Shown here piece by piece: positions 13,574 to 31,155 of a stretch of 32,050 bases of DNA. Below the pieces are notes generated by a model, which had not been told where the DNA came from, ran no database searches, and saw nothing but the letters and a program-made list of their open reading frames with translations. Origin of the DNA: Flavobacteriaceae bacterium (GTDB lineage Bacteria > Bacteroidota > Bacteroidia > Flavobacteriales > Flavobacteriaceae); contig JBPEXP010000035.1 in the NCBI GenBank assembly GCA_052031475.1, forward strand, positions 1 through 32,050, in the 5' to 3' direction. How positions within the stretch are numbered: the stretch's first letter is position 1; each line of letters opens with the position of its first letter. Both the position numbers and the translations under genes were made by a program.

Positions 13574-14068
13574 ATGACAAAAATCCTGCTGCTTTCCGAT
13601 ACACACGGACATGTGGATGACCTGATCCTTAAATATGCTGCAAAGGCCGATCAGATATGGCATGCGGGAGATATCGGAGATTTAAGCGTAACCGATGCAC
13701 TGGCAGAAAAAGCAACACTTGTAGCGGTTCACGGCAACATTGATCATCATTTGATCCAAAGGGAATTTCCCCTTCACCAGCGTTTTAAGTGCGAAGAAGT
13801 GGATGTTTGGATGACTCATATTGGAGGATATCCCGGTCGATATGACAGACGTGTGCGGGACGAGATCCGCCAGCGACCTCCTCAGTTGTTTATCTGTGGT
13901 CATTCTCATATTCTCAAAGTAATGAACGACAAGAATCTCAAGCTGCTGCATATGAATCCCGGTGCCTGTGGCAAGCGCGGGCTTCACAGCGTCAGAACCA
14001 TGCTAAGATTTACAATCCATCAAAGCGACATCAGGGATCTGGAGGTCATTGAACTGGGGAAGAGGTAG
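13574..14068 (+). CDS. Metallophosphoesterase, YfcE/MJ0936 family
   Basis: LSDTHGH, GD, HGNID and GHSH motifs in 164 aa. Confidence 0.85.
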   Translation: MTKILLLSDTHGHVDDLILKYAAKADQIWHAGDIGDLSVTDALAEKATLVAVHGNIDHHLIQREFPLHQRFKCEEVDVWMTHIGGYPGRYDRRVRDEIRQRPPQLFICGHSHILKVMNDKNLKLLHMNPGACGKRGLHSVRTMLRFTIHQSDIRDLEVIELGKR

Positions 14069-14094
14069 TATACTCGAGTTAAATATCTAAGATT

Positions 14095-14520
14095 ATGAAC
14101 CATATCAACGAACATTTTAAACTGGAATGCCTGGATCATGTGGCGCTAAGGGTCAAAGACTTAGACCGGTCCGTGTCATGGTATAAACAGGTGCTGGGCT
14201 TAATGGTATATCAACCCGAAGCCTGGGGTGCATTCCCCATTTTTTTGCTTGCCGGTACTACCGGGATCGCCCTGTTTCCATCAGATCCTGAGTTGGAGAT
14301 GCCAAACCGGCATCTTAAACACGTTAAAATTGACCACTTTGCCTTCCGGCTGTCGCAGGCAGATTTTGAGAAGGCGAAAAGCAGATATGATGAACTGGGT
14401 TTGAAATACCATATTCAGGATCATCACTATTTCCATTCCATGTACACGGAGGATCCGGACGGACATTTGGTAGAGCTCACCACGCTGGTGGTTCGGCCCG
14501 AAGATTTTTATCGCCTATAG
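14095..14520 (+). CDS. VOC (glyoxalase/bleomycin resistance/dioxygenase) family protein
   Basis: LDHVALRVKDLDRSVSWYKQVLGL and DPDGHLVEL, typical of the VOC fold. 141 aa. Confidence 0.8.
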   Translation: MNHINEHFKLECLDHVALRVKDLDRSVSWYKQVLGLMVYQPEAWGAFPIFLLAGTTGIALFPSDPELEMPNRHLKHVKIDHFAFRLSQADFEKAKSRYDELGLKYHIQDHHYFHSMYTEDPDGHLVELTTLVVRPEDFYRL

Positions 14521-14540
14521 TGCAAACTATTTAATAGCTA

Positions 14541-14573
14541 AAAACCCCGACAAGCAAAGCTGTCAGGGTTTTT
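14541..14573. terminator. Bidirectional intrinsic terminator between convergent genes
   Basis: AAAACCCCGACA-loop-TGTCAGGGTTTTT forms a 10-bp stem with one mismatch. It has an A-run on one side and a T-run on the other. Confidence 0.7.
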
Positions 14574-14600
14574 CGCACTAATACTACTAAGATATCAGGT

Positions 14601-15011
14601 TTAACGCAAACGATCTACAGATTTTACGAGATCCTCATCCCTCTTGATAGCCCTGTTGGCCAGGACCAGAAAAACGATAGAAAAAACCGGGATCAGCATC
14701 CCAATACCCTTCTCAGGAACCTCAGTTCCTCCGGATACACTTAGTGATCTGTAAACGAAAAATCCTAGTAAAAAAAGATTCAATATGATATTCAGCCTGT
14801 TTACCACAAACTGATTTTGCCTGTTCTTGTATAATAATATACTGATCAGCGCCAGTAAAGCTACCCCGTAAAAGGCCACCGCCAGCCATCCGATCTCGTC
14901 AAAGAACACAGCACTTCCTTCAGGATTCGTCCATACGGATGCCCATTGCACAAGCACAGCGCTCAAAAGGAGCACGATCAGTAAATAAAGGCTTTGAATT
15001 CTCTGGATCAC
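14601..15011 (-). CDS. DUF4293-like small membrane protein
   Basis: 136 aa with 4 TM segments and N-terminus MIQRIQSLYLL. GTG start. It is divergent from rho, which I recall as typical flavobacterial synteny. Confidence 0.7.
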   Translation of the reverse strand: MIQRIQSLYLLIVLLLSAVLVQWASVWTNPEGSAVFFDEIGWLAVAFYGVALLALISILLYKNRQNQFVVNRLNIILNLFLLGFFVYRSLSVSGGTEVPEKGIGMLIPVFSIVFLVLANRAIKRDEDLVKSVDRLR

Positions 15012-15033
15012 CTACTTATATTCTTTGGAACAG

Positions 15034-15041
15034 CAAAAATA
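15034..15041 (-). promoter_or_regulatory. Candidate Bacteroidota -7 promoter box (TATTTTTG) for the DUF4293 gene
   Basis: Exact match to TAnnTTTG on the minus strand, 22 nt upstream of the GTG start. I see no convincing -33 TTTG. Confidence 0.4.
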
Positions 15042-15333
15042 CGGGTCTTGTAACTAATTTCTGAGCATATTCGTAAAAAAATAGATGGATCAATAGGAAA
15101 ATGATCAAAGACCAATTTTTTATGGAATCATGAAGGTTTAACAAATACAGCAGAGTGAATCGATTCTAATTCAAATATTTAAGGCATTAAGACGATATAT
15201 TGAAAATAATTTGTAATATTGCTGCGTTATTAGTTATACCACTTACCGCTTGGGAAATCTTTCCCACGTAATACCCAAATAACAAAACACTTCTTTTTTC
15301 TAGTTAGATTAAGTATAATTTATTACATACTCA

Positions 15334-16911
15334 ATGTTTGAGATTTCAGAATTAAAAGCTAAGAAGCTACCTGAGCTTCAGCAGATTGCAAAAGATTTAA
15401 ATGTCCCCAAGTACCAAAAACTCAAGAAATTAGACCTGGTTTATCAAATTCTTGATGTTCAGGCGAGCAACCCCAAAACGGTCAGGGAAACAGTAGGTGC
15501 TATGGAAGGAAAGTCAGATCAAAAACCGCATCAGGCAGCTGAAAACAAATCAGCTGACGTGGCCTCAGCTGCAAAGGAAGACAGTGGCGGAAAGTCACAA
15601 TCCGATAGCAGCCAGGGCGGAAAAACGGATCAAAAATCACAGCACAGGCAAAATCAGAATAAAAAAGACCACAGCCGATCCCAGCAAAAAGGGCAACAGT
15701 CAAAAAAATCCCAACACAGCAAGAACGGGCAGGAGAAAAAGTCCAGTAATTTTGATAAAGACCTGAAGAACAAATACAAGCAGCCCGAATACGAGTTTGA
15801 CAGTATCATAGAGAGCGAAGGCGTTCTTGATATTATGCAGGACGGCTACGGATTCCTTCGTTCTTCGGACTACAACTATCTCTCATCTCCAGACGACATC
15901 TATGTGTCTCAGTCACAAATAAGGCTTTTTGGCCTGAAGACCGGTGACACGGTACTGGGAAATGTAAGACCCCCCAAAGAAGGTGAAAAATATTTCCCGC
16001 TGATCAAGGTGAATAAGATCAATGGCCTGGACCCGCAAGTAGTTAGGGACCGGGTTTCTTTTGAACACCTCACTCCCCTTTTCCCACAGGAAAAATTTAA
16101 GCTGGCGGAGCGCCAAAGTACTATATCCACCAGGGTCATGGACCTCTTTTCACCCATCGGTAAAGGCCAGAGGGGTATGATCGTATCCCAGCCCAAGACG
16201 GGTAAGACCATGCTGCTTAAAGACATTGCCAATGCCATTGCGGCGAATCATCCTGAGGTATACCAGATCATTCTACTGATCGATGAAAGGCCGGAGGAAG
16301 TTACGGACATGCAACGAAATGTTAGCGGGGAAGTGGTGGCATCTACTTTCGATAAAGAAGCAACCGAACACGTTCGGGTGGCCAATATCGTCCTCGAAAA
16401 AGCTAAGAGACTGGTAGAGTGCGGCCACGATGTGGTCATTCTCCTCGATTCCATCACACGTTTGGCCAGAGCCTACAATACGGTACAACCTGCATCGGGC
16501 AAGGTCCTCAGTGGTGGTGTTGACGCCAATGCCCTGCACAAACCCAAAAGATTCTTCGGTGCTGCGAGAAATATTGAAAATGGAGGTTCACTTTCCATCA
16601 TCGCCACAGCGCTTACCGAAACCGGATCTAAGATGGACGAAGTGATCTTTGAAGAATTCAAGGGAACGGGTAACATGGAATTGCAGCTCGACAGAAGGAT
16701 CAGCAACAGAAGGATCTTCCCAGCCATCGATCTGGTCAGCTCTTCTACACGTAGAGATGATCTCCTCCTGGACGACACTACGGTACAGCGTATGTGGATC
16801 ATGAGAAAATACCTGGCAGATATGAATCCTGTAGAGGCCATGGAATTCATGGAGCAGCGCATCAAACAAACCAAAAACAACGAAGAATTCCTGATGACGA
16901 TGAACGAGTAG
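15334..16911 (+). CDS. rho: Transcription termination factor Rho with a long low-complexity N-terminal insertion
   Basis: Rho_N helix ([21 protein letters not shown]), cold-shock-like RNA-binding domain ([15 protein letters not shown]), Walker A SQPKTGKT and a conserved C-terminus. A Q/K/S-rich insertion of about 105 aa separates the first two. Confidence 0.95.
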
Positions 16912-17097: not shown

Positions 17098-17787
17098 ATG
17101 AAGAATTCAAGTAAGGCCTGTTATTTTATGGCCCTGGTTATGAGCCTAATATTAACAGCTTGCGGGGAGCAGTCGCAGCGCGAAACCTCCGCTGCTTCAG
17201 AACAGGTAGAAGCCCCAAAGCAGATTATCAGTCTCGAGGAGGCTCAATCTATGTACAAAAATTACAGTGAACGCCGAGTACCGCTGATTCAGAAATATGA
17301 GGACAGCCTGAACCGCAGTATGCGGGATACTGCAAGCTTCGATGTGGCCCGCTATACTTATTACGATTACCATACTATAAAACAATATCTGGCTTATATA
17401 GAGCAGGAAGCGGCTGCAGCCGGAGTAGAGATAAGTTCTCTTCGCTTCTACTACAGTAATTATCCTGATCAGCAAACCTTTGCTGACGGAACTCCCATCA
17501 TGCATCCGAGACAGAATTCATTTTTTATTATTCCGGCCCTGAAGCAGGAAGGTGAGGATTGGGCGTTTAATATTGAAGATGCCGGAGATGGCACCAAGCG
17601 CGCTGTAATACTTCATGCAGATTTACAAGCCGTTGATGGAAAGAACATGGGCATGATCAATAATGGTCGCGATAAAGCTTATGCAGGTCATCTGATGTCC
17701 GGTCCTTCCGGTCCGGTGCCCGCTGCATTTGGCAACGGAAGTGTAGTCCTTAACCACGGCGGTGCGGCACCACCACCCTGGCAATAA
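17098..17787 (+). CDS. Hypothetical lipoprotein
   Basis: Signal peptide with lipobox LILTACG. 229 aa with no recognisable motifs. First gene of a tightly spaced three-gene run. Confidence 0.6.
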   Translation: MKNSSKACYFMALVMSLILTACGEQSQRETSAASEQVEAPKQIISLEEAQSMYKNYSERRVPLIQKYEDSLNRSMRDTASFDVARYTYYDYHTIKQYLAYIEQEAAAAGVEISSLRFYYSNYPDQQTFADGTPIMHPRQNSFFIIPALKQEGEDWAFNIEDAGDGTKRAVILHADLQAVDGKNMGMINNGRDKAYAGHLMSGPSGPVPAAFGNGSVVLNHGGAAPPPWQ

Positions 17788-17803: not shown

Positions 17804-18493
17804 GTGTTTAGGATATTTGACATATTCCTGGAGAACGCGTATCTGCCTATATATGCGATCACAGTAATTGTAGCCCTTTGGAGGTTCCCCAGGTACTACG
17901 ATACGGTTTTTAAATACCTGCCGGTATTACTGACGTATACCTTTCTCAACGAAGTACTCGGTAATATCATTAAATATTTTGATGAGTACGATTTTGTGTT
18001 CAAAGATCTTCTTACCTACAACAATTGGGTCATCTACAATATTTACGATATAATTTTCTATGTGTATTTCATCTACGTTTACTGGCTGAGCACCAAGAAG
18101 GAATACGCGCGGAAAATTATTTTCGGCGGTGGGATCCTGTATCTGATCGCCGCAGTAGTCAATCCATTCCTGACCGACTTTTTAACAAGGTTTCAGATGA
18201 TCTCCTATTTTACAGGAGCCTCAGTGCTTATCGCTTCCATTTTTATCTATCTGAATTACCACAAACAAAAAACCGGGAGCGTGTTCAACTCCAGGAATTT
18301 ACTTTCCTGGATTAGCGCCGGAATTTTGGTATTTCTGATGGGTTATATACCCCTGATAATTTTAGGCCATCTGGAAATTGTGCCAAGGGCTGATTTCCAG
18401 ATCATAAGAAGGATCCATTTACTGCTCATACTGACCATGTACAGCTGTTTTATTTTGGGATTCATCCGAATGAGCAAAAAACAAATCGTTTAG
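17804..18493 (+). CDS. Hypothetical polytopic membrane protein (about 7 TM)
   Basis: The ORF is hydrophobic and Tyr/Phe/Ile-rich. It has a GTG start 16 nt after the preceding stop, and 7 nt separate it from the next gene. Confidence 0.5.
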   Translation: MFRIFDIFLENAYLPIYAITVIVALWRFPRYYDTVFKYLPVLLTYTFLNEVLGNIIKYFDEYDFVFKDLLTYNNWVIYNIYDIIFYVYFIYVYWLSTKKEYARKIIFGGGILYLIAAVVNPFLTDFLTRFQMISYFTGASVLIASIFIYLNYHKQKTGSVFNSRNLLSWISAGILVFLMGYIPLIILGHLEIVPRADFQIIRRIHLLLILTMYSCFILGFIRMSKKQIV

Positions 18494-19491: not shown

Positions 19492-19503
19492 TCATTAAAC
19501 TCG

Positions 19504-19575
19504 TAGCCCGTAGGGGAATCGAACCCCTGTTACCAGGATGAAAACCTGGCGTCCTAACCCCTAGACGAACGGGCC
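19504..19575 (-). tRNA. tRNA-Glu (anticodon UUC)
   Basis: The reverse complement is GGCCCGTTCGTCTAGGGGTTAGGACGCCAGGTTTTCATCCTGGTAACAGGGGTTCGATTCCCCTACGGGCTA. It folds into a cloverleaf with anticodon stem CCAGG/CCTGG, loop TTTTCAT and T-loop GGTTCGATTCC. No CCA is encoded. Confidence 0.9.
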
Positions 19576-19733: not shown

Positions 19734-21209
19734 TTAATAGGCCTTGGCAAAGAGCACGCGCTGGCTTGACGGGCGCCCGGTAACCATACATTTTCCGGCT
19801 TCTGGTTGTACTCCGTAGGGGATGCATCTGATGGTGGCCTTGGTCTCATCCTTGATTTTTTCCTCGGTTTCGTTGCTGCCGTCCCAGTGGGCTGAAATAA
19901 ATCCGCCTTTCTCCTCCAGGATCCTTTTAAAATCAGCATAAGTATCTACTTCGGTGATGCGGGCTTCCCTGAAATCAGATGCTCTCTTATACAGGTTTTC
20001 CTGGATGTCTGCTAGCAGATTCTCGATTTTCTCTACGGCAGAGTCGGCCGGCACGGTCATTTTTTCCAGTGTATCCCGTCTTGCTATCTCGAGGGTTCCA
20101 TTTTCCAGGTCGCGCTGTCCAATGGCGATCCGTACCGGAACACCTTTGAGTTCATACTCATTAAATTTGAAGCCGGGCTTGTGGGTATCGCGGTGATCGT
20201 ATTTAACGGAAATCCCCCTGGCCTTTAGAGCTTCGCAAATAGGATTAACGCGCTCTGTAATGGCATCCAACTGATCCAGCCCCTTGTAAATAGGAACAAT
20301 GACTACCTGGATAGGGGCAAGTCTGGGTGGCAAGACCAGGCCGTTATCATCGCTGTGGGTCATGATCAGGGCCCCCATGAGCCGTGTAGACACACCCCAG
20401 GAAGTGGCCCAAACATATTCCTGGTCCCCCTCTTTATTGGCAAATTTTACATCAAAAGCTTTGGCAAAATTCTGGCCCAGAAAATGGGAGGTTCCCGCCT
20501 GCAGTGCCTTACCGTCCTGCATAAGAGCTTCTATACAGTAAGTTTCCACGGCTCCTGCGAATCGCTCACTCTCTGTTTTGGTGCCCTTAATGACCGGTAC
20601 GGCCATAAAATTCTCAGCAAAATCTGCGTAGATCCCCAGTATTAATTCCGCTTCGTCAATGGCTTCCTGCTCTGTAGCGTGTGCTGTATGCCCTTCCTGC
20701 CACAGAAATTCAGCTGTACGGAGGAATAATCGGGTGCGCATTTCCCAGCGTACTACATTGGCCCACTGGTTGATCAGCAAGGGCAGATCCCTGTAGGACT
20801 GGATCCATCTGCGGTACGTATCCCAAATAATGGTTTCCGATGTAGGCCTTACAATGAGTTCTTCTTCCAACCTCGCTTCCTCATCCACCACGATCCCCGA
20901 ACCATCCTCTGCATTTTTGAGGCGATAATGCGTAACTACGGCACATTCTTTGGCAAAGCCTTCCACATGGCTGGCTTCTTTACTCAGATAAGACTTTGGA
21001 ATGAACAAAGGAAAATAGGCATTCTCATGCCCCGTATCCTTAAACATCCGGTCTAGGCCGGCCTGCATTTTTTCCCAGATAGCAAAACCATATGGTTTGA
21101 TGACCATACAGCCTCTAACCCCTGAATTCTCGGCCAGATCAGCCTTTATAACGAGTTCATTGTACCATTTGGAATAATCTTCACTGCGCTTGGTTAAATT
21201 TTTTCCCAT
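19734..21209 (-). CDS. proS: Proline--tRNA ligase (archaeal/eukaryote-like class II type)
   Basis: 491 aa. N-terminus [19 protein letters not shown], class II motifs ([16 protein letters not shown]) and a C-terminal zinc-binding-like end ...LFAKAY. Confidence 0.93.
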
Positions 21210-21246
21210 TCAACGTACTTTGGCACAAATGTTGTGATATTGTTAA

Positions 21247-21254
21247 CAAAAATA
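21247..21254 (-). promoter_or_regulatory. Candidate -7 box (TATTTTTG) for proS
   Basis: Exact TAnnTTTG match on the minus strand, 37 nt upstream of the proS ATG. Confidence 0.35.
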
Positions 21255-21306
21255 GCTCGGTAAAGCTAACTAATTTTAGAATGTTCAACAATATAAATTA
21301 CAAGCG

Positions 21307-22620
21307 ATGACGTATTCTATACCCCAGCCTAAAAATCTCTCGCTTCTGGCTGTTTTAACGGCCTTTTTCCTGATGAGCTCCTGTGGTTCATACAGGCAAT
21401 CGTCTTATTATGATGACGATGGTATTTATCAGGAAGAACCGCGACGCACTACAGTGTACTCCAAACCTCAAAGGCAAGCGGAGACCAAAAAAGAGAGTGA
21501 CGGTATTTACGATGATTATTTCAGTCAGAAGGCCGATCAGATTGATGAGTACATGGATTCTGAAATATTTACGGACATCGACGAATACAGCAGCGAAACA
21601 GAACAGGACAGTTTAGGACTGGCCGAAAAAGGAGATTATACAGACTACAGTGCCCAGGATTACAGCGGCTACGGCGGATGGGGCGAAAACGCATCCAATG
21701 TTAATATCAATGTCTACGGCGGTGGCTGGGGCGGCGGCTGGGGCTGGGGCGGCGGAATCGGCTTTGGCATCGGCATTGGCTGGGGCTGGGGCTGGGGCTA
21801 TCCCGGTTGGGGCTGGGGCTATCCCGGTTGGGGCTGGGGTTATCCTGGCTGGGGCTGGGGTTATGCTGGCTGGGGCTGGGGAGGCTATCCCGGTTGGGGC
21901 TGGGGTTATCCAGGCTGGGGCTGGGGCGGCGGATACTACCCTTACTACGGTTACGGACGTTATGCCTATAACAGGAGCAGACGTGGCTACTACGGTACAG
22001 GAGCCAATGCCATAGCATATAATCAGGCTCGCGGAAGATCCAATCTCGGAACCACAGGACGCTCTGTTCGCACCAGAAATAATAGCGGGCGATCCAATCT
22101 CAGTAACGCCAATCCTAATCTGGCAAGGCGGTCATCTGCCAGATCGGCCAATGCACGTAGCGGAAGGGTAAGTGCAGATGCCATCGAACGCAACCGGGCT
22201 TACAGGTCTAGCCGAAGTACCCGGGCCGTTCCAAGATATAACAACAGTTCCAGATCTGCCCGGACGTACAGGGGCGCAGCCACCAGGAGCGGCACATATC
22301 GCCGAGGTTCATCCGGCACTGCCAGGTCTTCCAGAGGCGCTTACAGAACAGGGTCACCCAGATCTTCTACATATAACAGGAGTGGATCGCCAGCAGGCAG
22401 AAGCTCAGGATACCGCGGTTCTTCCCGATCAGGTTATTCTAGAAGTTCAGGATACCGGGGCAGCACCAGAAGCAGTCCGAGAAGTTCAGGTTACCGGAGC
22501 TCCGGCGGTAGTTACCGAAGTTCAGGAGGCTTTAGGAGCTCAGGAGGATCCTTCAGATCATCAGGCGGAGGACGTTCCGGCGGCGGAGGACGTTCCGGTG
22601 GCGGAAGAGGAAGACAATAA
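21307..22620 (+). CDS. Predicted lipoprotein with a tripartite low-complexity architecture: acidic/Tyr block, (GWGWGYP)n Gly/Trp block, Arg/Ser/Gly/Tyr-rich tail
   Basis: ATG, then a hydrophobic signal and LMSSC (Cys26). 437 codons, 32 nt upstream of a co-oriented OMP gene. Composition described under findings. ORF length alone is weak evidence here, because other frames are also open across the repeat region. Confidence 0.65.
   Translation: MTYSIPQPKNLSLLAVLTAFFLMSSCGSYRQSSYYDDDGIYQEEPRRTTVYSKPQRQAETKKESDGIYDDYFSQKADQIDEYMDSEIFTDIDEYSSETEQDSLGLAEKGDYTDYSAQDYSGYGGWGENASNVNINVYGGGWGGGWGWGGGIGFGIGIGWGWGWGYPGWGWGYPGWGWGYPGWGWGYAGWGWGGYPGWGWGYPGWGWGGGYYPYYGYGRYAYNRSRRGYYGTGANAIAYNQARGRSNLGTTGRSVRTRNNSGRSNLSNANPNLARRSSARSANARSGRVSADAIERNRAYRSSRSTRAVPRYNNSSRSARTYRGAATRSGTYRRGSSGTARSSRGAYRTGSPRSSTYNRSGSPAGRSSGYRGSSRSGYSRSSGYRGSTRSSPRSSGYRSSGGSYRSSGGFRSSGGSFRSSGGGRSGGGGRSGGGRGRQ
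21718..21936 (+). repeat. Gly/Trp-coding tandem repeat array with a GGCTGGGGCTGGGGYTAYCCNGGN-type unit. The period is mostly 21 nt.
   Basis: The core at 21778-21929 holds about seven near-identical units encoding GWGWGYP, GWGWGYA or GWGWGGYP. It is preceded by a degenerate GGGW/GIGF region. Confidence 0.85.
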
Positions 22621-22652
22621 TTCATCATCAGACATACTAAAAAAATCAAGAA

Positions 22653-24155
22653 ATGAAAAGGATCACAACTTTCATGATAGGCTTGTTTTGTGCCGTTCTC
22701 AGCGCACAGGACATCACCGATGTGCTGAGATTCAGCCAGGAAGAGCTTTTAGGAACAGCCCGATTTCAATCGCTTAGCGGAGCCTTTGGTGCCCTGGGTG
22801 GAGACCTTTCGGCCATCAATGTCAACCCGGCCTCCAGCGCGGTGTTCAATAACGGCCAGTTTACCATGACGGGTGCGGCCTATAATCGCAAAAACGACGC
22901 AATCTATTTCGGTACTTTCCGCAATTCAAACATCACCTCCTGGAAATTCAACCAGATCGGTGGGGTTTTTGTATGGAAAGACCAGGAAAACGACTGGAAA
23001 AAGATCGCTTTGGCTTTCAACTATGACCTGGTCCGGAATTTTGATGATGAGTTCTTTGCTTCTGGTAACGGCACTGAGGGCATAGACAATTATTTTCTCA
23101 ATTTTGCCGAAGGAGTTCCCTTTAGCTCCCTACTAATCAGGGATGGTGAATTTATCGAAGATGCTTATTTAAGGGTGGGGTCCACTTTGGGATTTGGTCC
23201 GCAGCAGGCCTTTTTAGGCTATTTTGGCGGTGTGATAGACCCTCTGGATGAAAATGACCCGGACGAGACCAATTATGTCTCTACGGCCACTTATAGCACA
23301 GCTACTCAGGACTTTTTCCAGTCTACAAGAGGCTACAACAGCAAATTTACTATGAACCTTTCTGGCCAATATCAGGATGTATTATACCTGGGAGGTTCAT
23401 TGAATTTTAACAGCGTCTGGTACGAGAAGTTTACCCGCTTTGATGAAACCGGCTACGATCTGGGTTCTGAACTTCAATTTGTGAATTTTGACAACCTCCT
23501 AAGAACCACAGGATGGGCCTTCTCTTTCGGATTAGGAGCCATTGCCAGATTGAATGATAATGTAAGGCTGGGTGCCAGTTACCAAAGCCCCACCTGGTAT
23601 GAACTGCAGGACGACCTCTCTCAGCGGATCAATTCTAATCTCGCAGACAGTGATATAGGGTTTATCGACTTTAATCTGGTTAATTTCTTTGAAAGATATA
23701 CCGTAAAAACACCTTCAAAGTTTACGGGCAGCCTTGGCCTGGTCTTTGGCAAACAGGGATTGCTGAGCTTTGACTACAGCTACCAGGATATGTCACAGGC
23801 CGAATTAAGACCTCCCGGTGATCCCAGCTTTAGTGTTGTAAATACACAGATAGCCAATGAACTAGGAGCGGTTTCAAGTTTCCGGGTTGGCGGTGAGTAC
23901 CGCATCAATGCTTTTAGCTTGCGAGGCGGCTACCGCTTTGAACAAAGCCCCTATAACGATGGGCTTACCATAGGTGACCTTCAAGGCTATTCAGGTGGTT
24001 TTGGATTTAATTTCGGTGGCAGCAGACTGGACTTCGCCTACAGCCGTTCTGAGCAGGATGTCAGTCAGCAACTATTCACTACCGGGATCACGACCCCGGC
24101 TTCGGTGAACCAGATCAGGAACAATTTCCTGATGAGTTACACACTTAATTTCTAA
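22653..24155 (+). CDS. Outer-membrane beta-barrel protein, FadL/TodX/PorV-like. The exact family is uncertain.
   Basis: Signal peptide MKRITTFMIGLFCAVLSAQ. The N-terminal segment GTARFQSLSGAFGALGGDLSAINVNPASSAVF contains an NPA motif like the FadL hatch. There are many amphipathic beta-strand-like stretches, and the C-terminal residue is Phe (...SYTLNF). Confidence 0.7.
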   Translation: MKRITTFMIGLFCAVLSAQDITDVLRFSQEELLGTARFQSLSGAFGALGGDLSAINVNPASSAVFNNGQFTMTGAAYNRKNDAIYFGTFRNSNITSWKFNQIGGVFVWKDQENDWKKIALAFNYDLVRNFDDEFFASGNGTEGIDNYFLNFAEGVPFSSLLIRDGEFIEDAYLRVGSTLGFGPQQAFLGYFGGVIDPLDENDPDETNYVSTATYSTATQDFFQSTRGYNSKFTMNLSGQYQDVLYLGGSLNFNSVWYEKFTRFDETGYDLGSELQFVNFDNLLRTTGWAFSFGLGAIARLNDNVRLGASYQSPTWYELQDDLSQRINSNLADSDIGFIDFNLVNFFERYTVKTPSKFTGSLGLVFGKQGLLSFDYSYQDMSQAELRPPGDPSFSVVNTQIANELGAVSSFRVGGEYRINAFSLRGGYRFEQSPYNDGLTIGDLQGYSGGFGFNFGGSRLDFAYSRSEQDVSQQLFTTGITTPASVNQIRNNFLMSYTLNF

Positions 24156-24165
24156 GGAATAAGGA

Positions 24166-24192
24166 CCCCGACAGACAAATCGGGGTTTTTTT
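24166..24192 (+). terminator. Intrinsic terminator after the OMP gene. It overlaps the stop codon of the convergent T9SS gene.
   Basis: CCCCGA-CAGACAAA-TCGGGG followed by T7. Confidence 0.75.
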
Positions 24193-25606
24193 ATCGCTTG
24201 AGGGTAAAGTGGGTTCGGATGACATTGGCCACTAAAGCCCCGTTCTCATCTCTTTCGTATTCCAGCCTGAACCAGTAATCCGATGATGGCATGGGCCTAC
24301 CATTAAAGGTGCCGTCCCAGCCAATCGTATTCTCATCGAGTTGTTTCAGCAGTTTGCCATATCGGTCGAAGATAAATACCGTGGGGTCAGTGAGCGTCTC
24401 TATTCCCAGTACATTCCAGGCATCGTGTATTCCATCGCCGTTTGGTGTAAAAAATTTGGGATAGCCCACTACCAGGAAAGGAATGGGTTCTGTGGTACCG
24501 CATCCGTTCAGATCGTTGATGATCAAAGTGTTTTCCCCAGGCGGCACATCCACGAATATGGGTGAAGGCTGAAATTCTCCCCCGTTAATCGCGTATTCAT
24601 AGCTGCCATTGCTGGCCATGAAAACCTCTATAATATTATTATCCGATAAATCATCGATGACATCGATCCTGTCCAGTACGGGCGGACCGAAGAAGGTGAT
24701 CAGAATATCGTCTGTTATGGTTGTTGCGAAAGTGGTCTGAATCTCCACGAAATACCGGCCAGAATTAGGGCTGGTTACCACATAGGTTGTGGCAGTGGGT
24801 CCTGAAGCCAGGTTGGGATCGTCAATTACTCCGTCATCATCATAGTCTACAGACCAGGTGACATTGGCTATATTGGGGCCGGCAGGCGAGTTCTCAGCAC
24901 TGAGTGTTATATCCGGATCTCCTTCGCAGGCAATGATATCCAGACCCAGGAATTCGTCCCTGAGCGTACAATCCAGGGCCGTATTCTGATCGGCATCTAC
25001 TGAACTCCCTGTAAACGTGAGCATAAAAGGTTCGGGGTCCCCGTTAAAATTGGTGTTGAAATTATTGATAAGCAGGTAATATACCTCGCCCTGAAGCACG
25101 TCTATCCATTCATCATAAGTATTCTGATTCCCAGTAAGCGGAGGCTGGCCTACCTGCCCGTTCTCAGGGTTTACCCCTACCCCTGTAAAATCCGTATCAT
25201 TCACCTCATAATTACATCGTATGGGCTGGGCCGTACCATTGCTGATACTGGCACAGTCTACATCGGGTCCGTAAAGCGCAAAATCCCACTCGGCAGTGAT
25301 GGTCGTGCCTGTGGAGGGAAGGGCCTGAATATCAAAACCAATCTGGCCGTCTGTGCCAGCCCTGAATACGTACCAGGAAGTATTGTTTTCAATATTGGCG
25401 GAGGCCACACTACCTTTTTCAAGACATCCGGATTGCCTGATCACATTGGGATCAAAATCCTCAATATCGCCCAGGCCATCAGCCTGAGACATGATAGGAG
25501 CATCTGCACAGACAGGAATGGAAGTCCGGCAATCAGGAGAGTTCTGCGCTCTGATCCCCAAAACCATGAGAAAAACAGCGCAAAATGTACATTTTAGTGT
25601 TCGCAT
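24191..25606 (-). CDS. T9SS type B sorting domain-containing secreted protein (paralog 1)
   Basis: Signal peptide. The C-terminus GYPKFFTPNGDGIHDAWNV...FDRYGKLL...WDGTFNGRPMPSSDYWF...FTLKR matches the gliding-motility/type B CTD. The N-terminal Cys-rich module is shared with the next gene. Confidence 0.85.
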   Translation of the reverse strand: MRTLKCTFCAVFLMVLGIRAQNSPDCRTSIPVCADAPIMSQADGLGDIEDFDPNVIRQSGCLEKGSVASANIENNTSWYVFRAGTDGQIGFDIQALPSTGTTITAEWDFALYGPDVDCASISNGTAQPIRCNYEVNDTDFTGVGVNPENGQVGQPPLTGNQNTYDEWIDVLQGEVYYLLINNFNTNFNGDPEPFMLTFTGSSVDADQNTALDCTLRDEFLGLDIIACEGDPDITLSAENSPAGPNIANVTWSVDYDDDGVIDDPNLASGPTATTYVVTSPNSGRYFVEIQTTFATTITDDILITFFGPPVLDRIDVIDDLSDNNIIEVFMASNGSYEYAINGGEFQPSPIFVDVPPGENTLIINDLNGCGTTEPIPFLVVGYPKFFTPNGDGIHDAWNVLGIETLTDPTVFIFDRYGKLLKQLDENTIGWDGTFNGRPMPSSDYWFRLEYERDENGALVANVIRTHFTLKR

Positions 25607-25735: not shown

Positions 25736-27538
25736 TTAGCGCCTGAGCGAGAAGTGGTTACTGAGGTATTTAGCCTCTACTCGTTGGCCCTGTGTATCCA
25801 GGTAAGTAAGCTGAAACCAGTAGTCCGTTGAGGGCAATGCACGGCCGTTGAATGTACCGTCCCAACCGCTGCTGTTACCGTCTAATTGCTTGATGAACTT
25901 GCCGTAGCGGTCAAAGACACTGACTATGGGCTCTTCAAGAGTATCGACCCCTTCAATGTGCCAGCGATCATTGGCCCCGTCGCCGTTGGGAGTAAAAAAC
26001 TTGGGATATCCCACTACGGTGATCGTATCACTGACCTGGCCACATCCGTTAAGATCATTGATGGTGATGGTGTGCAGACCTGGGGCTACATCGGTAAATA
26101 TATTGGAGGCCTGAAAGGGTCCTGAATCCAGTTGGTATTCAAAATCACCGCTAACACCGGCTATCACTTCAACGGTATTGCTGTCTTGCAAGCCTTCGAT
26201 CAATACCTCACTAATGGTTGGAGTTAGGGAAACTACCACGTTTATGGAAGCCACCGTGCTGCATGTGAGTCCGGATTGACTGTTGCTGATGGTGAGTTCA
26301 TAGGTTCCTGCTTGGGAAACGGTGATCGACGGACTGCTTTGGCCGCCGTCCCAGCTGTACGTATAGCCGGGATTTGGACTGCTTTCGCCTATCAGTACAC
26401 CACTGCTGTCTTCACATACAAATATTTCTGTAGGGAAGGAGATCATGGGTGATTCTACAACAGTGAGATCAAAACTCTCACTGGCATCATAGCAGTTGGG
26501 ATTGGTGCTGGAAGTTGCCCTGACATAGATCGTTTCCGTTCCCGCAATCAGCGCATATTGGCTGGGGAGGGCGTTTGCACCGCTATTCGCATCTGCTGCA
26601 GATTGATGATAGCTAATCAGTACTTCATCCGGATCTTGTGAACCCAGCGCTTCACCGTCTTTCGAACTCAGGTCGAAATAGCCCAATTCCGAACAGACGG
26701 TTTCATCAGTAATACTTTGAGTTACCGGTGCAATGCTGAATGCCACCTGAACATCACTGATGATATTGCCACTGGCGGTCACCACCTGTACCCGGTACAT
26801 AGCTGAGACCGTAACCGTTAAGGTTGGATTGGTCTCGCCGCTTATAAGTTGAAATCCACTACCTGTATCCCTGTACCAGTTATAGCTAAGCGCGCCGGCC
26901 GTGGTGGCGTCTAATTGTACCGTCTGGTTGTCACATGCGGCCAGGGGCGGTCCCAGTAGATTATTGATGATGGAGCAATCCAGGGCATCGTTCGGATTGG
27001 TGATGAAGATATCCCCGGTAAACTGAATGGAAAAACCCGAATTCGTATTACTGAAATTATTGATCAGCAGGTAGTAGTCCTGTCCGGGTTCAACTTGCAG
27101 CCAATCTTCATAGAGAACGGTACTTGTACTTCCGGTGGGGTCTTCCCCTACACCCATAAATGCTTCTTCATCCTGGTTGTCGAAGAAATTACATCGAACC
27201 GGGTCTCCCAGGTTGTTGCAATCACTGCTCTGGTACAAGGCAAAATCCCAGTCCTCGGAGGTGTCAAATCCAATATTGAAACCCAGTTGTCCCGAGGCAC
27301 CGGTACGGAAGCGGTACCAGGCAGAATTAGACTCTATGGCGCCAGAGAGGGTTTGTTCCAGGCAACCGCTCGTAAAAGCCCCGTTGAAATCATCGATACC
27401 ATAGCCCTGGGTGCCTCCATTGGTTGGTGTATTGTTGCAAATGGGGATGGCATTGGTACAATCAACAGCAATCTGCCCGTAAGACCAAGAGCCACAGAAT
27501 AATAGCGACAGCAATAAGGCAAGGCAGAGCTGTTTCAT
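25736..27538 (-). CDS. T9SS type B sorting domain-containing secreted protein (paralog 2, with extra Ig-like repeats)
   Basis: Signal peptide. The C-terminus is GYPKFFTPNGDGANDRWHI...FDRYGKFI...WDGTFNGRALPSTDYWF...FSLRR. The N-terminal module is collinear with paralog 1. Confidence 0.85.
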   Translation of the reverse strand: MKQLCLALLLSLLFCGSWSYGQIAVDCTNAIPICNNTPTNGGTQGYGIDDFNGAFTSGCLEQTLSGAIESNSAWYRFRTGASGQLGFNIGFDTSEDWDFALYQSSDCNNLGDPVRCNFFDNQDEEAFMGVGEDPTGSTSTVLYEDWLQVEPGQDYYLLINNFSNTNSGFSIQFTGDIFITNPNDALDCSIINNLLGPPLAACDNQTVQLDATTAGALSYNWYRDTGSGFQLISGETNPTLTVTVSAMYRVQVVTASGNIISDVQVAFSIAPVTQSITDETVCSELGYFDLSSKDGEALGSQDPDEVLISYHQSAADANSGANALPSQYALIAGTETIYVRATSSTNPNCYDASESFDLTVVESPMISFPTEIFVCEDSSGVLIGESSPNPGYTYSWDGGQSSPSITVSQAGTYELTISNSQSGLTCSTVASINVVVSLTPTISEVLIEGLQDSNTVEVIAGVSGDFEYQLDSGPFQASNIFTDVAPGLHTITINDLNGCGQVSDTITVVGYPKFFTPNGDGANDRWHIEGVDTLEEPIVSVFDRYGKFIKQLDGNSSGWDGTFNGRALPSTDYWFQLTYLDTQGQRVEAKYLSNHFSLRR

Positions 27539-30183: not shown

Positions 30184-31155
30184 ATGTACTTTCTTGGCAT
30201 TACCTGGAATCCCAACGACACCCTTTTTGCGTTAGGACCTCTGCAAGTCAAATATTACAACCTGCTATGGATCATAGCCTTTGCCGTGGGCTGGTATTTA
30301 ATGAAGCGGATTTTTGACAATGAGCGTAAAACCAGTCAGCAATTAGACGCCCTCTTTATTTACACCGTGGTAGCCACTATGCTGGGTGCACGATTAGGCC
30401 ATGTATTTTTTTACGACTGGGACTATTATAAGGACCACCTGGCAGAAATATTACTGCCCATCCGGGAAAGAACGGGAAGTTCGCTTTTTGGCCTGATCAA
30501 CGGTTATGAGTTTTCAGGATTTAGCGGGCTTGCCAGCCACGGCGCCGCCATTGGTGTCATCATAGGCATGTACCTGCTAACCCGAAAATACAAGGACCTC
30601 AATTTGCTTTGGGTCCTAGACCGGGTGGTCATACCGGTAAGCTTAGGCGCTTTTATGGTCAGGCTGGGAAACTTTTTTAACTCCGAGATCAATGGTAAAG
30701 TCACCGACAGTTCCTTTGCTTTTGCCACCCGCTTTGTAAGGGATTCAGACGATATGCCTGCTTACAGGGCTTTGCAGATCACCGGTGAGGATACAGTGGA
30801 TGCAGCCTATAAGGCCTTGGAACACAAGGCGGAATTTGCCCAATACCTGGAAGCGATCCCGTTCAGACATCCGGCTCAAATGTACGAAGGGGTTGCCTAT
30901 ATATTTGTATTTCTGATCCTGTACTGGTTTTACTGGAAAACGGATTACAAGAATAAAAAAGGTTTTTTATTCGGCCTTTTCCTCATCCTTCTGTGGACAA
31001 TCCGATTCTTTGTCGAGTTTGTTAAAAAGAGCCAGGGCGGTTTTGAAGAATCGCTTGGATTGTTGTCTACGGGCCAGTGGTTAAGCATTCCGTTTATAAT
31101 CATCGGTCTGTACTTTGTATTCAGGCCTTCATCAAATAGCGAAAACAAATCCTGA
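30184..31155 (+). CDS. lgt: Prolipoprotein diacylglyceryl transferase
   Basis: Polytopic membrane protein with GARLGHVFFY and RHPAQMYEG motifs. 323 aa. Confidence 0.88.
   Translation: MYFLGITWNPNDTLFALGPLQVKYYNLLWIIAFAVGWYLMKRIFDNERKTSQQLDALFIYTVVATMLGARLGHVFFYDWDYYKDHLAEILLPIRERTGSSLFGLINGYEFSGFSGLASHGAAIGVIIGMYLLTRKYKDLNLLWVLDRVVIPVSLGAFMVRLGNFFNSEINGKVTDSSFAFATRFVRDSDDMPAYRALQITGEDTVDAAYKALEHKAEFAQYLEAIPFRHPAQMYEGVAYIFVFLILYWFYWKTDYKNKKGFLFGLFLILLWTIRFFVEFVKKSQGGFEESLGLLSTGQWLSIPFIIIGLYFVFRPSSNSENKS

Follow-up and report, generated by a model that had tools for sequence, protein, structure and literature searches.

A FadL-family outer-membrane barrel gene paired with a gene for a predicted disordered lipoprotein in Flavobacteriaceae and more distant lineages

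What is an outer-membrane barrel doing beside a lipoprotein of extreme composition? The question is raised by two co-directional genes (21307–24192) in a 32,050-nucleotide stretch of a Flavobacteriaceae genome (contig JBPEXP010000035.1 of assembly GCA_052031475.1; hereafter the window). An earlier note on this DNA suggested that they are a dedicated pair, that the barrel could export, anchor or partner the lipoprotein as part of an undescribed cell-surface system, and that a link to a type IX secretion system (T9SS) was conceivable, given the cargo genes lying tail-to-tail with the barrel gene. We find that Flavobacteriaceae share the pair with distant lineages that carry Bacteroidales or Bacteroidia labels, and that the barrel is a distinct FadL-family subfamily of ~500 aa, separate from PorV, PorQ, PorP/SprF and BamG. 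With moderate confidence, we read the pair as a housekeeping operon for an outer-membrane, hatch-gated channel of FadL type and a periplasmic partner docked on the barrel. The lipoprotein gene, the 32-nt gap, the 500-aa barrel gene, the terminator and the divergent proS all proved to lie where the earlier note had placed them, and the locus is laid out as follows:

19734–21209 (−): proS (prolyl-tRNA synthetase), open reading frame (ORF); conserved divergent neighbour upstream of the pair, given for context
21271–21278 (+): candidate Bacteroidota-type −7 promoter box TAATTTTA (consensus TAnnTTTG), 28 nt 5′ of the ATG
21307–22620 (+): partner lipoprotein gene, 437 aa, ORF
22621–22652 (+): intergenic spacer of 32 nt, without hairpin or promoter-like box
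22653–24155 (+): FadL-family outer-membrane barrel gene, 500 aa, ORF
24165–24192 (+): intrinsic terminator from RNA folding, with an 8-bp GC-rich stem (hairpin 24165–24186) followed by T6–7

Conservation of the pair and turnover of its flank

A genome scan returned relatives in 425 species, from which the best 80 loci (Flavobacteriaceae) were analysed, and another 80 loci came from scanning metagenomes with seeds from the distant clade. The partner gene lies upstream of the barrel gene in all 77 genome loci that retain any upstream sequence (73 intact, two frameshifted and two cut by a contig end), and in 49/49 metagenome loci whose upstream sequence reaches 1.6 kb or more. The gap between the two genes is 20–46 nt in the intact genome-locus orthologues and 1–130 nt over all loci, with an 11-nt overlap in one locus, and their orientation is always co-directional. 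The order proS/partner/barrel is also kept in eight deep lineages (L081, L082, L083, L084/85, L086, L087, L088/89 and L090/91), some of them labelled Bacteroidales or Bacteroidia, in which the barrels extend down to 30% identity. Because both genes are conserved in ~170 other loci, both are more than chance ORFs. Upstream, divergent proS is present in 75/75 genome loci that reach far enough, with full-length tblastn matches at 80–86% identity, and on the opposite strand in 36/36 metagenome loci that extend 4.4 kb or further upstream. Downstream, the flank varies by lineage while the partner–barrel junction stays unbroken:

Most Flavobacteriaceae loci, the window included: type-B T9SS cargo genes
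L011: ORF read as an rnz-like gene
L081: radical-SAM gene
L084: Zn-ribbon and NIF3 genes
L086: folE-cysS-lgt directly
L087: NifU
L088: gene for a small outer-membrane protein
L090: mfd

Co-directional adjacency in every locus with upstream sequence, from 100% to ~30% barrel identity and beside a shifting downstream flank, supports a dedicated pair, insofar as gene order can, and on both co-occurrence and adjacency the earlier proposal of such a pair held up in the genome loci, the metagenome loci and the deep lineages alike. The same arrangement could also reflect inherited synteny without coupling, in which an ordinary fatty-acid or hydrocarbon FadL stands beside an unrelated envelope protein; the functionally unrelated proS is equally fixed beside the pair, and database labels for the barrel read FadL or aromatic hydrocarbon degradation protein. 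We regard this as quite unlikely, given that: (i) the genes remain co-directional at these short gaps through ~135 loci, with no intergenic terminator in the window, (ii) the partner gene is retained in place throughout, although almost none of its sequence similarity survives, and (iii) the downstream flank has been rearranged many times, the pair junction never. As side observations on the upstream flank, proS and the partner gene stand ~1.3 kb apart in L109, L112, L122, L136, L137, L141 and L142, where an extra gene may be inserted, and L115 carries proS on the same strand as the pair.

The arrangement recurs in Flavobacterium johnsoniae, where Fjoh_4939 is a proline-tRNA ligase, Fjoh_4940 a lipoprotein and Fjoh_4941 a FadL/TodX barrel (PMC12045153 supplement), giving the same gene order as the window by numbering and annotation. 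Tryptic peptides are available for Fjoh_4941 (A5FA29, 55 kDa; PMC12611786 supplement), and four of them align collinearly with residues 356–378 and 458–485 of the window barrel, which supports orthology of the two barrels. The partner gene is the probable orthologue of Fjoh_4940, as judged only by gene position and annotation.

Regarding transcription, the lipoprotein and barrel genes are probably co-transcribed, judging from the sequence between and around them. The sequencing runs turned up by a search were all marine-sediment DNA metagenomes, none of them RNA. RNA folding against shuffles finds the 32-nt spacer unstructured (dG −2.9, z −0.46), a promoter-box search finds no TAnnTTTG-like site within 22501–22652, and the terminator hairpin behind the barrel gene has a dG of −16.5 kcal/mol (z −3.9; 0/200 shuffles as stable). 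This terminator is common to the pair and the convergent cargo gene, whose stop codon is 24191–24193. The candidate −7 box TAATTTTA deviates from TAnnTTTG by one mismatch and is kept, together with its surroundings, across 10 genera; we infer that it is the promoter of the pair. The whole proS–lipoprotein intergenic region (21210–21306) is strongly conserved across genera, and also contains TGGCAC-N5-TTGT (+, 21221–21235), a sigma-54 −24/−12-like element that could equally be a proS −7 box on the minus strand (AACATTTG).

The two genes convergent with the window barrel encode T9SS proteins with type-B C-terminal domains (CTDs; TIGR04131, 120 and 111 bits), and these neighbours invite a further interpretation, namely that the barrel is a PorV/PorP-like shuttle or anchor for both type-B CTD proteins and the lipoprotein a PorE-like component. 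Precedent exists among FadL-fold barrels of this kind, since PorP has both the lipoprotein PorE and a type-B CTD protein as binding partners, and type-A CTDs bind to PorV. Moreover, the cargo genes lie tail-to-tail with the barrel gene in ~76/80 Flavobacteriaceae loci (the Maribacter/Muricauda/Eudoraea-type clade), L082 and L083 have large CHU_C proteins behind the barrel, and no PorP/SprF gene was found in the window. However, the cargo genes are convergent with the pair, which points to separate transcripts, and their adjacency is absent from L011, L081, L084, L086, L087, L088 and L090. Among the 80 distant metagenome loci, 79 have no CTD match and the remaining one has a weak, non-adjacent match. 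In L086, folE and cysS stand directly behind the barrel gene, so that the cargo genes look like a lineage-specific insertion; the rpsT-to-cysS region as a whole is collinear in the cargo-bearing clade. Where the window has T9SS cargo, F. johnsoniae has Fjoh_4942, next-numbered after the barrel, which encodes a cytoplasmic protein (PMC12045153 supplement). A functional meaning of the cargo adjacency was rejected on this phylogenetic spread. The cargo proteins themselves (24191–25606 and 25736–27538, both on the minus strand) are paralogues that share a Cys-rich N-terminal domain, and the first of them is 67–90% identical in ~76/80 Flavobacteriaceae loci, matching or exceeding the barrel.

The barrel and its hatch

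Profile comparisons place the barrel in the FadL family. It matches Pfam PF03349 (Toluene_X, FadL/OmpP1/TodX) at 36.8 bits against a gathering threshold of 29.7, and the same family is precomputed on nearly all listed close homologues. In contrast, it reaches 30.7 bits with the NCBIfam PorV_fam model (NF033709; cut-off 90) and 14.9 bits with PorQ (NF033711; cut-off 220), both of which align only C-terminal residues ~393 to 480, and has no match to PorP/SprF (PF11751) at E ≤ 0.1. Thus, of the families against which the earlier note had proposed to compare the barrel, FadL stands, and the PorV and PorP/SprF affiliations fall away together with PorQ. Neither phmmer nor a profile built from 15 sequences matched any solved chain in the PDB (E ≤ 1–10), an absence that is informative because the PDB does include F. 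johnsoniae BamG and PorV as well as E. coli FadL. The barrel sequences fall into 4441 clusters at 50% identity for E ≤ 1e-3, and into 656 for E ≤ 1e-30.

To place the fold, the barrel was modelled with AlphaFold2 (AF2) from an alignment of 109 close homologues, with a predicted local distance difference test score (pLDDT) of 85.6 and a predicted template modelling score (pTM) of 0.83. Foldseek searches of the PDB with this model also matched P. aeruginosa FadL, the FadL matches lay at TM 0.5–0.64, and all matches were at 11–14% identity; template modelling (TM) scores are given below as pairs:

B. thetaiotaomicron BamG (9hiv_F): E 1.2e-17, TM 0.53/0.64, top match
E. coli FadL: E 3.5e-16, TM 0.52/0.59
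F. johnsoniae BamG (9n2d_B): E 2.7e-15, TM 0.52/0.64
P. gingivalis BamG (9hjm_F): E 5.7e-13, TM 0.55/0.68
TodX and CymD: E ~1e-12, TM 0.45–0.48/0.54–0.60
PorV (8gl6_F): E 6.9e-6, TM 0.34/0.44

The model therefore resembles BamG and FadL equally closely and is far from PorV. Identity of the barrel with BamG was rejected on sequence, with no match to solved BamG chains and 12–13% identity in the structural alignments, and identity with PorV, PorQ or PorP was rejected on the profile thresholds and on structure. Together with the clade-limited cargo adjacency, the scores far under the PorV and PorQ cut-offs, the missing PorP_SprF match and the weak fold match to PorV leave the T9SS link of the pair not supported, and a T9SS accessory role, which the earlier note had thought conceivable, appears highly improbable. 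Membership in a group of Bacteroidota FadL-fold barrels is what the window barrel shares with PorV, PorQ and PorP, in addition to its type-B cargo neighbours; the window partner has none of the folded domains of PorE and no Pfam match at all.

Several features of the barrel could be located on the window:

22752–22850 (+): N-terminal hatch, residues 34–66, from conservation; its placement inside the lumen is predicted
22824–22832 (+): NPA motif N58-P59-A60, within the hatch
23073–23300 (+): helical insert, residues 141–216 (76 aa), from AF2; extracellular loop L2 if 115–129 and 132–140 are one kinked strand S3

The topology, read solely from the DSSP string of the AF2 model, comprises 14 strands if 115–129 and 132–140 are counted as one S3, with residues 20–66 preceding strand 1. 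The break in this third strand, at 130–131, falls at the site of the FadL S3 kink. The helical insert that follows is highly conserved in close relatives and average in the wider family, represented here by 134 sequences at 30–55% identity. Across these representatives, the hatch is 68% identical to that of the window barrel, compared to 35% over the mature protein, and NPA is kept in 99–100%; it is invariant in the 109 close homologues. The hatch with its NPA motif is thus the most strongly constrained part of the barrel. FadL NPA mutants are reported to lose transport, and the PDB includes FadL N33A, P34A and delta-NPA mutants, indicating that this motif was a target of FadL structure–function work. 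The N-terminus preceding the hatch is likewise conserved among close relatives, and the mature N-terminus is presumably ~4–7 residues longer than that of FadL (by a hand count against the FadL N-terminal sequence).

Overall, the window barrel shares with FadL, TodX and CymD the PF03349 family, the predicted 14 strands, the N-terminal hatch, NPA and, in the secondary-structure string, a break in strand 3, with Foldseek E-values of 3.5e-16 to 3.5e-11. It differs from them in its 11–14% identity, with no sequence-level match to solved FadL, and in being ~80 residues longer than FadL, the 76-residue helical insert included. The genomic setting also differs: the barrel gene sits among housekeeping genes, a FadL-type fatty-acid or hydrocarbon catabolism context was not seen, and the barrel is always encoded beside its disordered partner, an association that is not known for classical FadL genes.

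The partner lipoprotein

The partner belongs to an unannotated family that is conserved in composition and layout rather than in sequence, and it is predicted to be almost wholly disordered. Its extreme composition, remarked on in the earlier note, is real, with 44% Gly and 20% Trp over residues 125–215 followed by 23% Ser, 21% Arg and 18% Gly over residues 215–437. The protein and its gene are divided as follows:

21307–21384 (+): lipoprotein signal peptide and lipobox LMSS-C26; N-terminus MTYSIPQPKNLSLLAVLTAFFLMSS-C26
21382–21429 (+): Cys-proximal conserved motif CGSYRQSSYYDDDGIY (family consensus CGSYQQASYYDNDGIY), from invariant or near-invariant alignment columns
21406–21681 (+): acidic, Tyr-rich block (residues 30–125) with the EIFTDxDxY motif, from composition and conservation
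21505–21561 (+): sole predicted helix past the signal peptide, residues 67–85 (AF2, pLDDT ~70–83)
21667–21951 (+): Gly/Trp-rich repeat block with ~7 copies of GWGWGYP, from composition and Tandem Repeats Finder
21952–22617 (+): basic Ser/Arg/Gly/Tyr low-complexity tail ending GGGRGRQ, with islands YAYNRSRRGYY, RGRSNL and VSADAIERNRAYRSSRSTRAVPRYN

No Pfam, NCBIfam or PDB sequence match was obtained for the partner. Its AF2 model has a mean pLDDT of 46, with nearly all residues from 126 to the end below 50, and contains a helix at 9–25 (the signal peptide) and the helix at 67–85 as its sole predicted helices. The 73 full-length orthologues retain conserved islands: CGSYQQASYYDNDGIY right after the lipobox, DGIYGDYFGQKA and SEIFTDVDxY, and further on GWGDNxxNVxINxY, YAYNRSRRGYY, RGRSNL and VSADAIARNRAYRTSRSTRAVPRYN. 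Conservation peaks in the stretch beside the lipidated Cys. In distant lineages the partner sequence becomes unrecognisable, yet a four-block layout is kept behind the signal peptide, in which a mature N-terminus with DD(G)IY(Y) precedes an acidic Tyr-rich block, a W/Y/F-rich block and a long basic tail. The aromatic block of relatives contains 40–60% W/Y/F, with maxima of 0.42–0.60 per 60 aa in the metagenome homologues, and homologue tails are 57–96% polar (mostly >78%) with 7–22% K/R and few D/E, the distant ones ending in GGRR-like sequence.

Tandem Repeats Finder reports a 21-nt period in 6.7 copies at 21784–21927, and an assembly artefact was ruled out by an independent marine-sediment metagenome contig that covers 21200–23452 gap-free. 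Three other marine-sediment assemblies end at 21795–21816, within the repeat, and such short-read breaks account for most database homologues being partial; a profile of the lipoprotein N-terminus matched 206 proteins, mostly partial. The repeat also gives rise to alternative-frame ORFs at 21650–22015 (+), 21707–22018 (−) and 22172–22777 (+), which are artefacts. In L083 and L086 the partner gene is broken up or overlooked by gene callers, and the database name of some homologues is 'vitellogenin II precursor'.

Localisation of the partner bears on the earlier idea that the barrel is a conduit to the cell surface. A lipobox is present in 73/73 full-length genome orthologues and in ~45 metagenome homologues. 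In at least four distant lineages (L126, L134, L161 and L170) it is replaced by a signal peptidase I (SPI) signal, cleaved at A-Q just before DDIYY, so that the lipid anchor is common, not universal, and the constant feature is a secreted disordered protein. Surface export of Bacteroidota lipoproteins was judged by the presence of at least two acidic residues among the six after the Cys (a criterion quoted in PMC12578637). The window partner, with GSYRQS after the Cys, has no acidic residue at +2 to +7, and nearly all homologues likewise have none at these six positions, with three having one. Fjoh_4940 has been classed as a periplasm-facing signal peptidase II (SPII) lipoprotein (PMC12045153 supplement). 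The lack of an export signal, the periplasm-facing orthologue and the SPI variants speak against a lipoprotein-export conduit or a cell-surface system.

A possible channel with a docked periplasmic partner

Published proteomics of F. johnsoniae provide an indication of where the two proteins reside. In outer-membrane fractions, Fjoh_4940 is represented by ~46 peptides, about as many as BamG, and Fjoh_4941 by ~19. Depletion of TamL raises both proteins in these fractions, by 2.6-fold for Fjoh_4940 and 5.6-fold for Fjoh_4941 (PMC12045153), and Fjoh_4941 behaves as an outer-membrane protein dependent on the β-barrel assembly machinery (BAM). The sole published mention of the two together (2025) states that their proximity 'might indicate a functional link' and assigns no function; 'undescribed', as the earlier note put it, is therefore nearly right, in that no function has been assigned, and needs correcting for this one mention of the F. 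johnsoniae pair as possibly linked.

Under our favoured reading, the barrel would act as a hatch-gated FadL-type channel from which a hydrophobic molecule, for example a fatty acid or an envelope lipid, is released laterally. The conservation of hatch and NPA indicates that the barrel keeps the part of FadL that gates transport. The partner would stay periplasmic, usually with a lipid anchor in the outer membrane's inner leaflet, and may dock on the periplasmic face of the barrel via its Cys-proximal DD(G)IY motif and the short helix after it. Its aromatic block and basic tail could then reach into the periplasm and serve as acceptor, channel regulator or cell-wall tether.

Several considerations weigh against this reading. 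With proS equally constant beside the two genes, neighbourhood by itself is no proof of function here. The PF03349 alignment is limited to barrel residues 282–468, and the hatch motif was compared with that of FadL only. The partner alignment used for AF2 spans the N-terminal part only, such that the disorder call for the tail leans mainly on composition. Furthermore, several Bacteroidota FadL-fold barrels (PorV, PorQ, PorP and BamG) are protein-binding scaffolds and not transporters, and the best Foldseek match is to one of these, BamG.

The last point leads to an alternative in which the barrel transports nothing and docks the partner in an envelope machine, as in BamG–BamH, BamG2–BamH2 or PorP–PorE, with a role in outer-membrane biogenesis, lipid homeostasis or outer-membrane attachment to the cell wall. 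The window and BamG–BamH do have in common a FadL-fold barrel with a lipoprotein partner, and the BamG chains align at target-normalised TM scores of 0.64–0.68. BamG clamps the lipidated N-terminus of BamH, and BamG2–BamH2 (Bt1785–Bt1786) are adjacent genes; the window partner is most conserved beside its lipidated Cys. A BamG assignment would call for association with BamA and for a conserved 10–12-residue N-terminal extension that passes through the lateral opening; the pre-hatch N-terminus of the window barrel, conserved in close relatives, is presumably a few residues longer than in FadL. The response of both F. johnsoniae proteins to TamL depletion would fit as well. Conversely, the window barrel has no detectable sequence relation to solved BamG chains, 9n2d_B included, and the purified F. 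johnsoniae BAM complex consists of BamA, D, G, H, M and P, with neither Fjoh_4940 nor Fjoh_4941 among its subunits. BamH is folded, surface-exposed and equipped with an export signal, whereas the window partner is predicted to be disordered and lacks the signal; and F. johnsoniae has bamG (Fjoh_1412) and bamH at separate sites, whereas the window genes are neighbours. The strict conservation of hatch and NPA fits a gated channel, and we consider the scaffold unlikely, though the strongest of the rival readings.

A more speculative interpretation concerns the partner itself. Its aromatic 'sticker' block, Arg-rich tail and acidic block may make it a bacterial counterpart of FUS-type low-complexity proteins, forming a condensate or gel-like layer under the outer membrane, although we see this as a long shot. 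If true, such a layer would ferry hydrophobic molecules from the barrel across the periplasm, or else bind outer membrane and cell wall together. Braun lipoprotein is not known from Bacteroidota, and a FUS-type partner could therefore fill the role of cell-wall link. It would also represent a new kind of envelope component, defined by composition and not by fold.

Within a known fold, the barrel makes up a new subfamily, and there are precedents for a FadL-fold barrel joined to a dedicated partner. FadL-fold barrels have lately been shown to be core to Bacteroidota envelope machines, with PorV, PorQ and PorP in the T9SS and BamG in BAM. To these the pair adds a barrel-plus-partner module that is widespread, present in outer-membrane preparations and responsive to outer-membrane stress in F. 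johnsoniae. Few bacterial envelope proteins behave like the partner, whose sequence drifts almost freely with its compositional layout kept over deep divergence, and a genetically tractable relative would allow a direct test. In practical terms, recognition of the family accounts for the frequent truncation, miscalling and 'vitellogenin II precursor' mislabelling of its members in databases.

Elsewhere in the window, ~1.27 kb upstream of rho (14068–15334) contains no ORF of at least 150 aa and no Rfam match, and the adjacent 229-aa ORFs at 17098–17787 (+) and 17804–18493 (+) have no Pfam match. The lgt gene (prolipoprotein diacylglyceryl transferase; 30184–31155, +) lies ~6 kb downstream of the pair, which probably reflects housekeeping synteny only. 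Rfam and tRNA scans of the window returned a single result, a tRNA-Glu (UUC) at 19503–19575 (−), between rpsT and proS.

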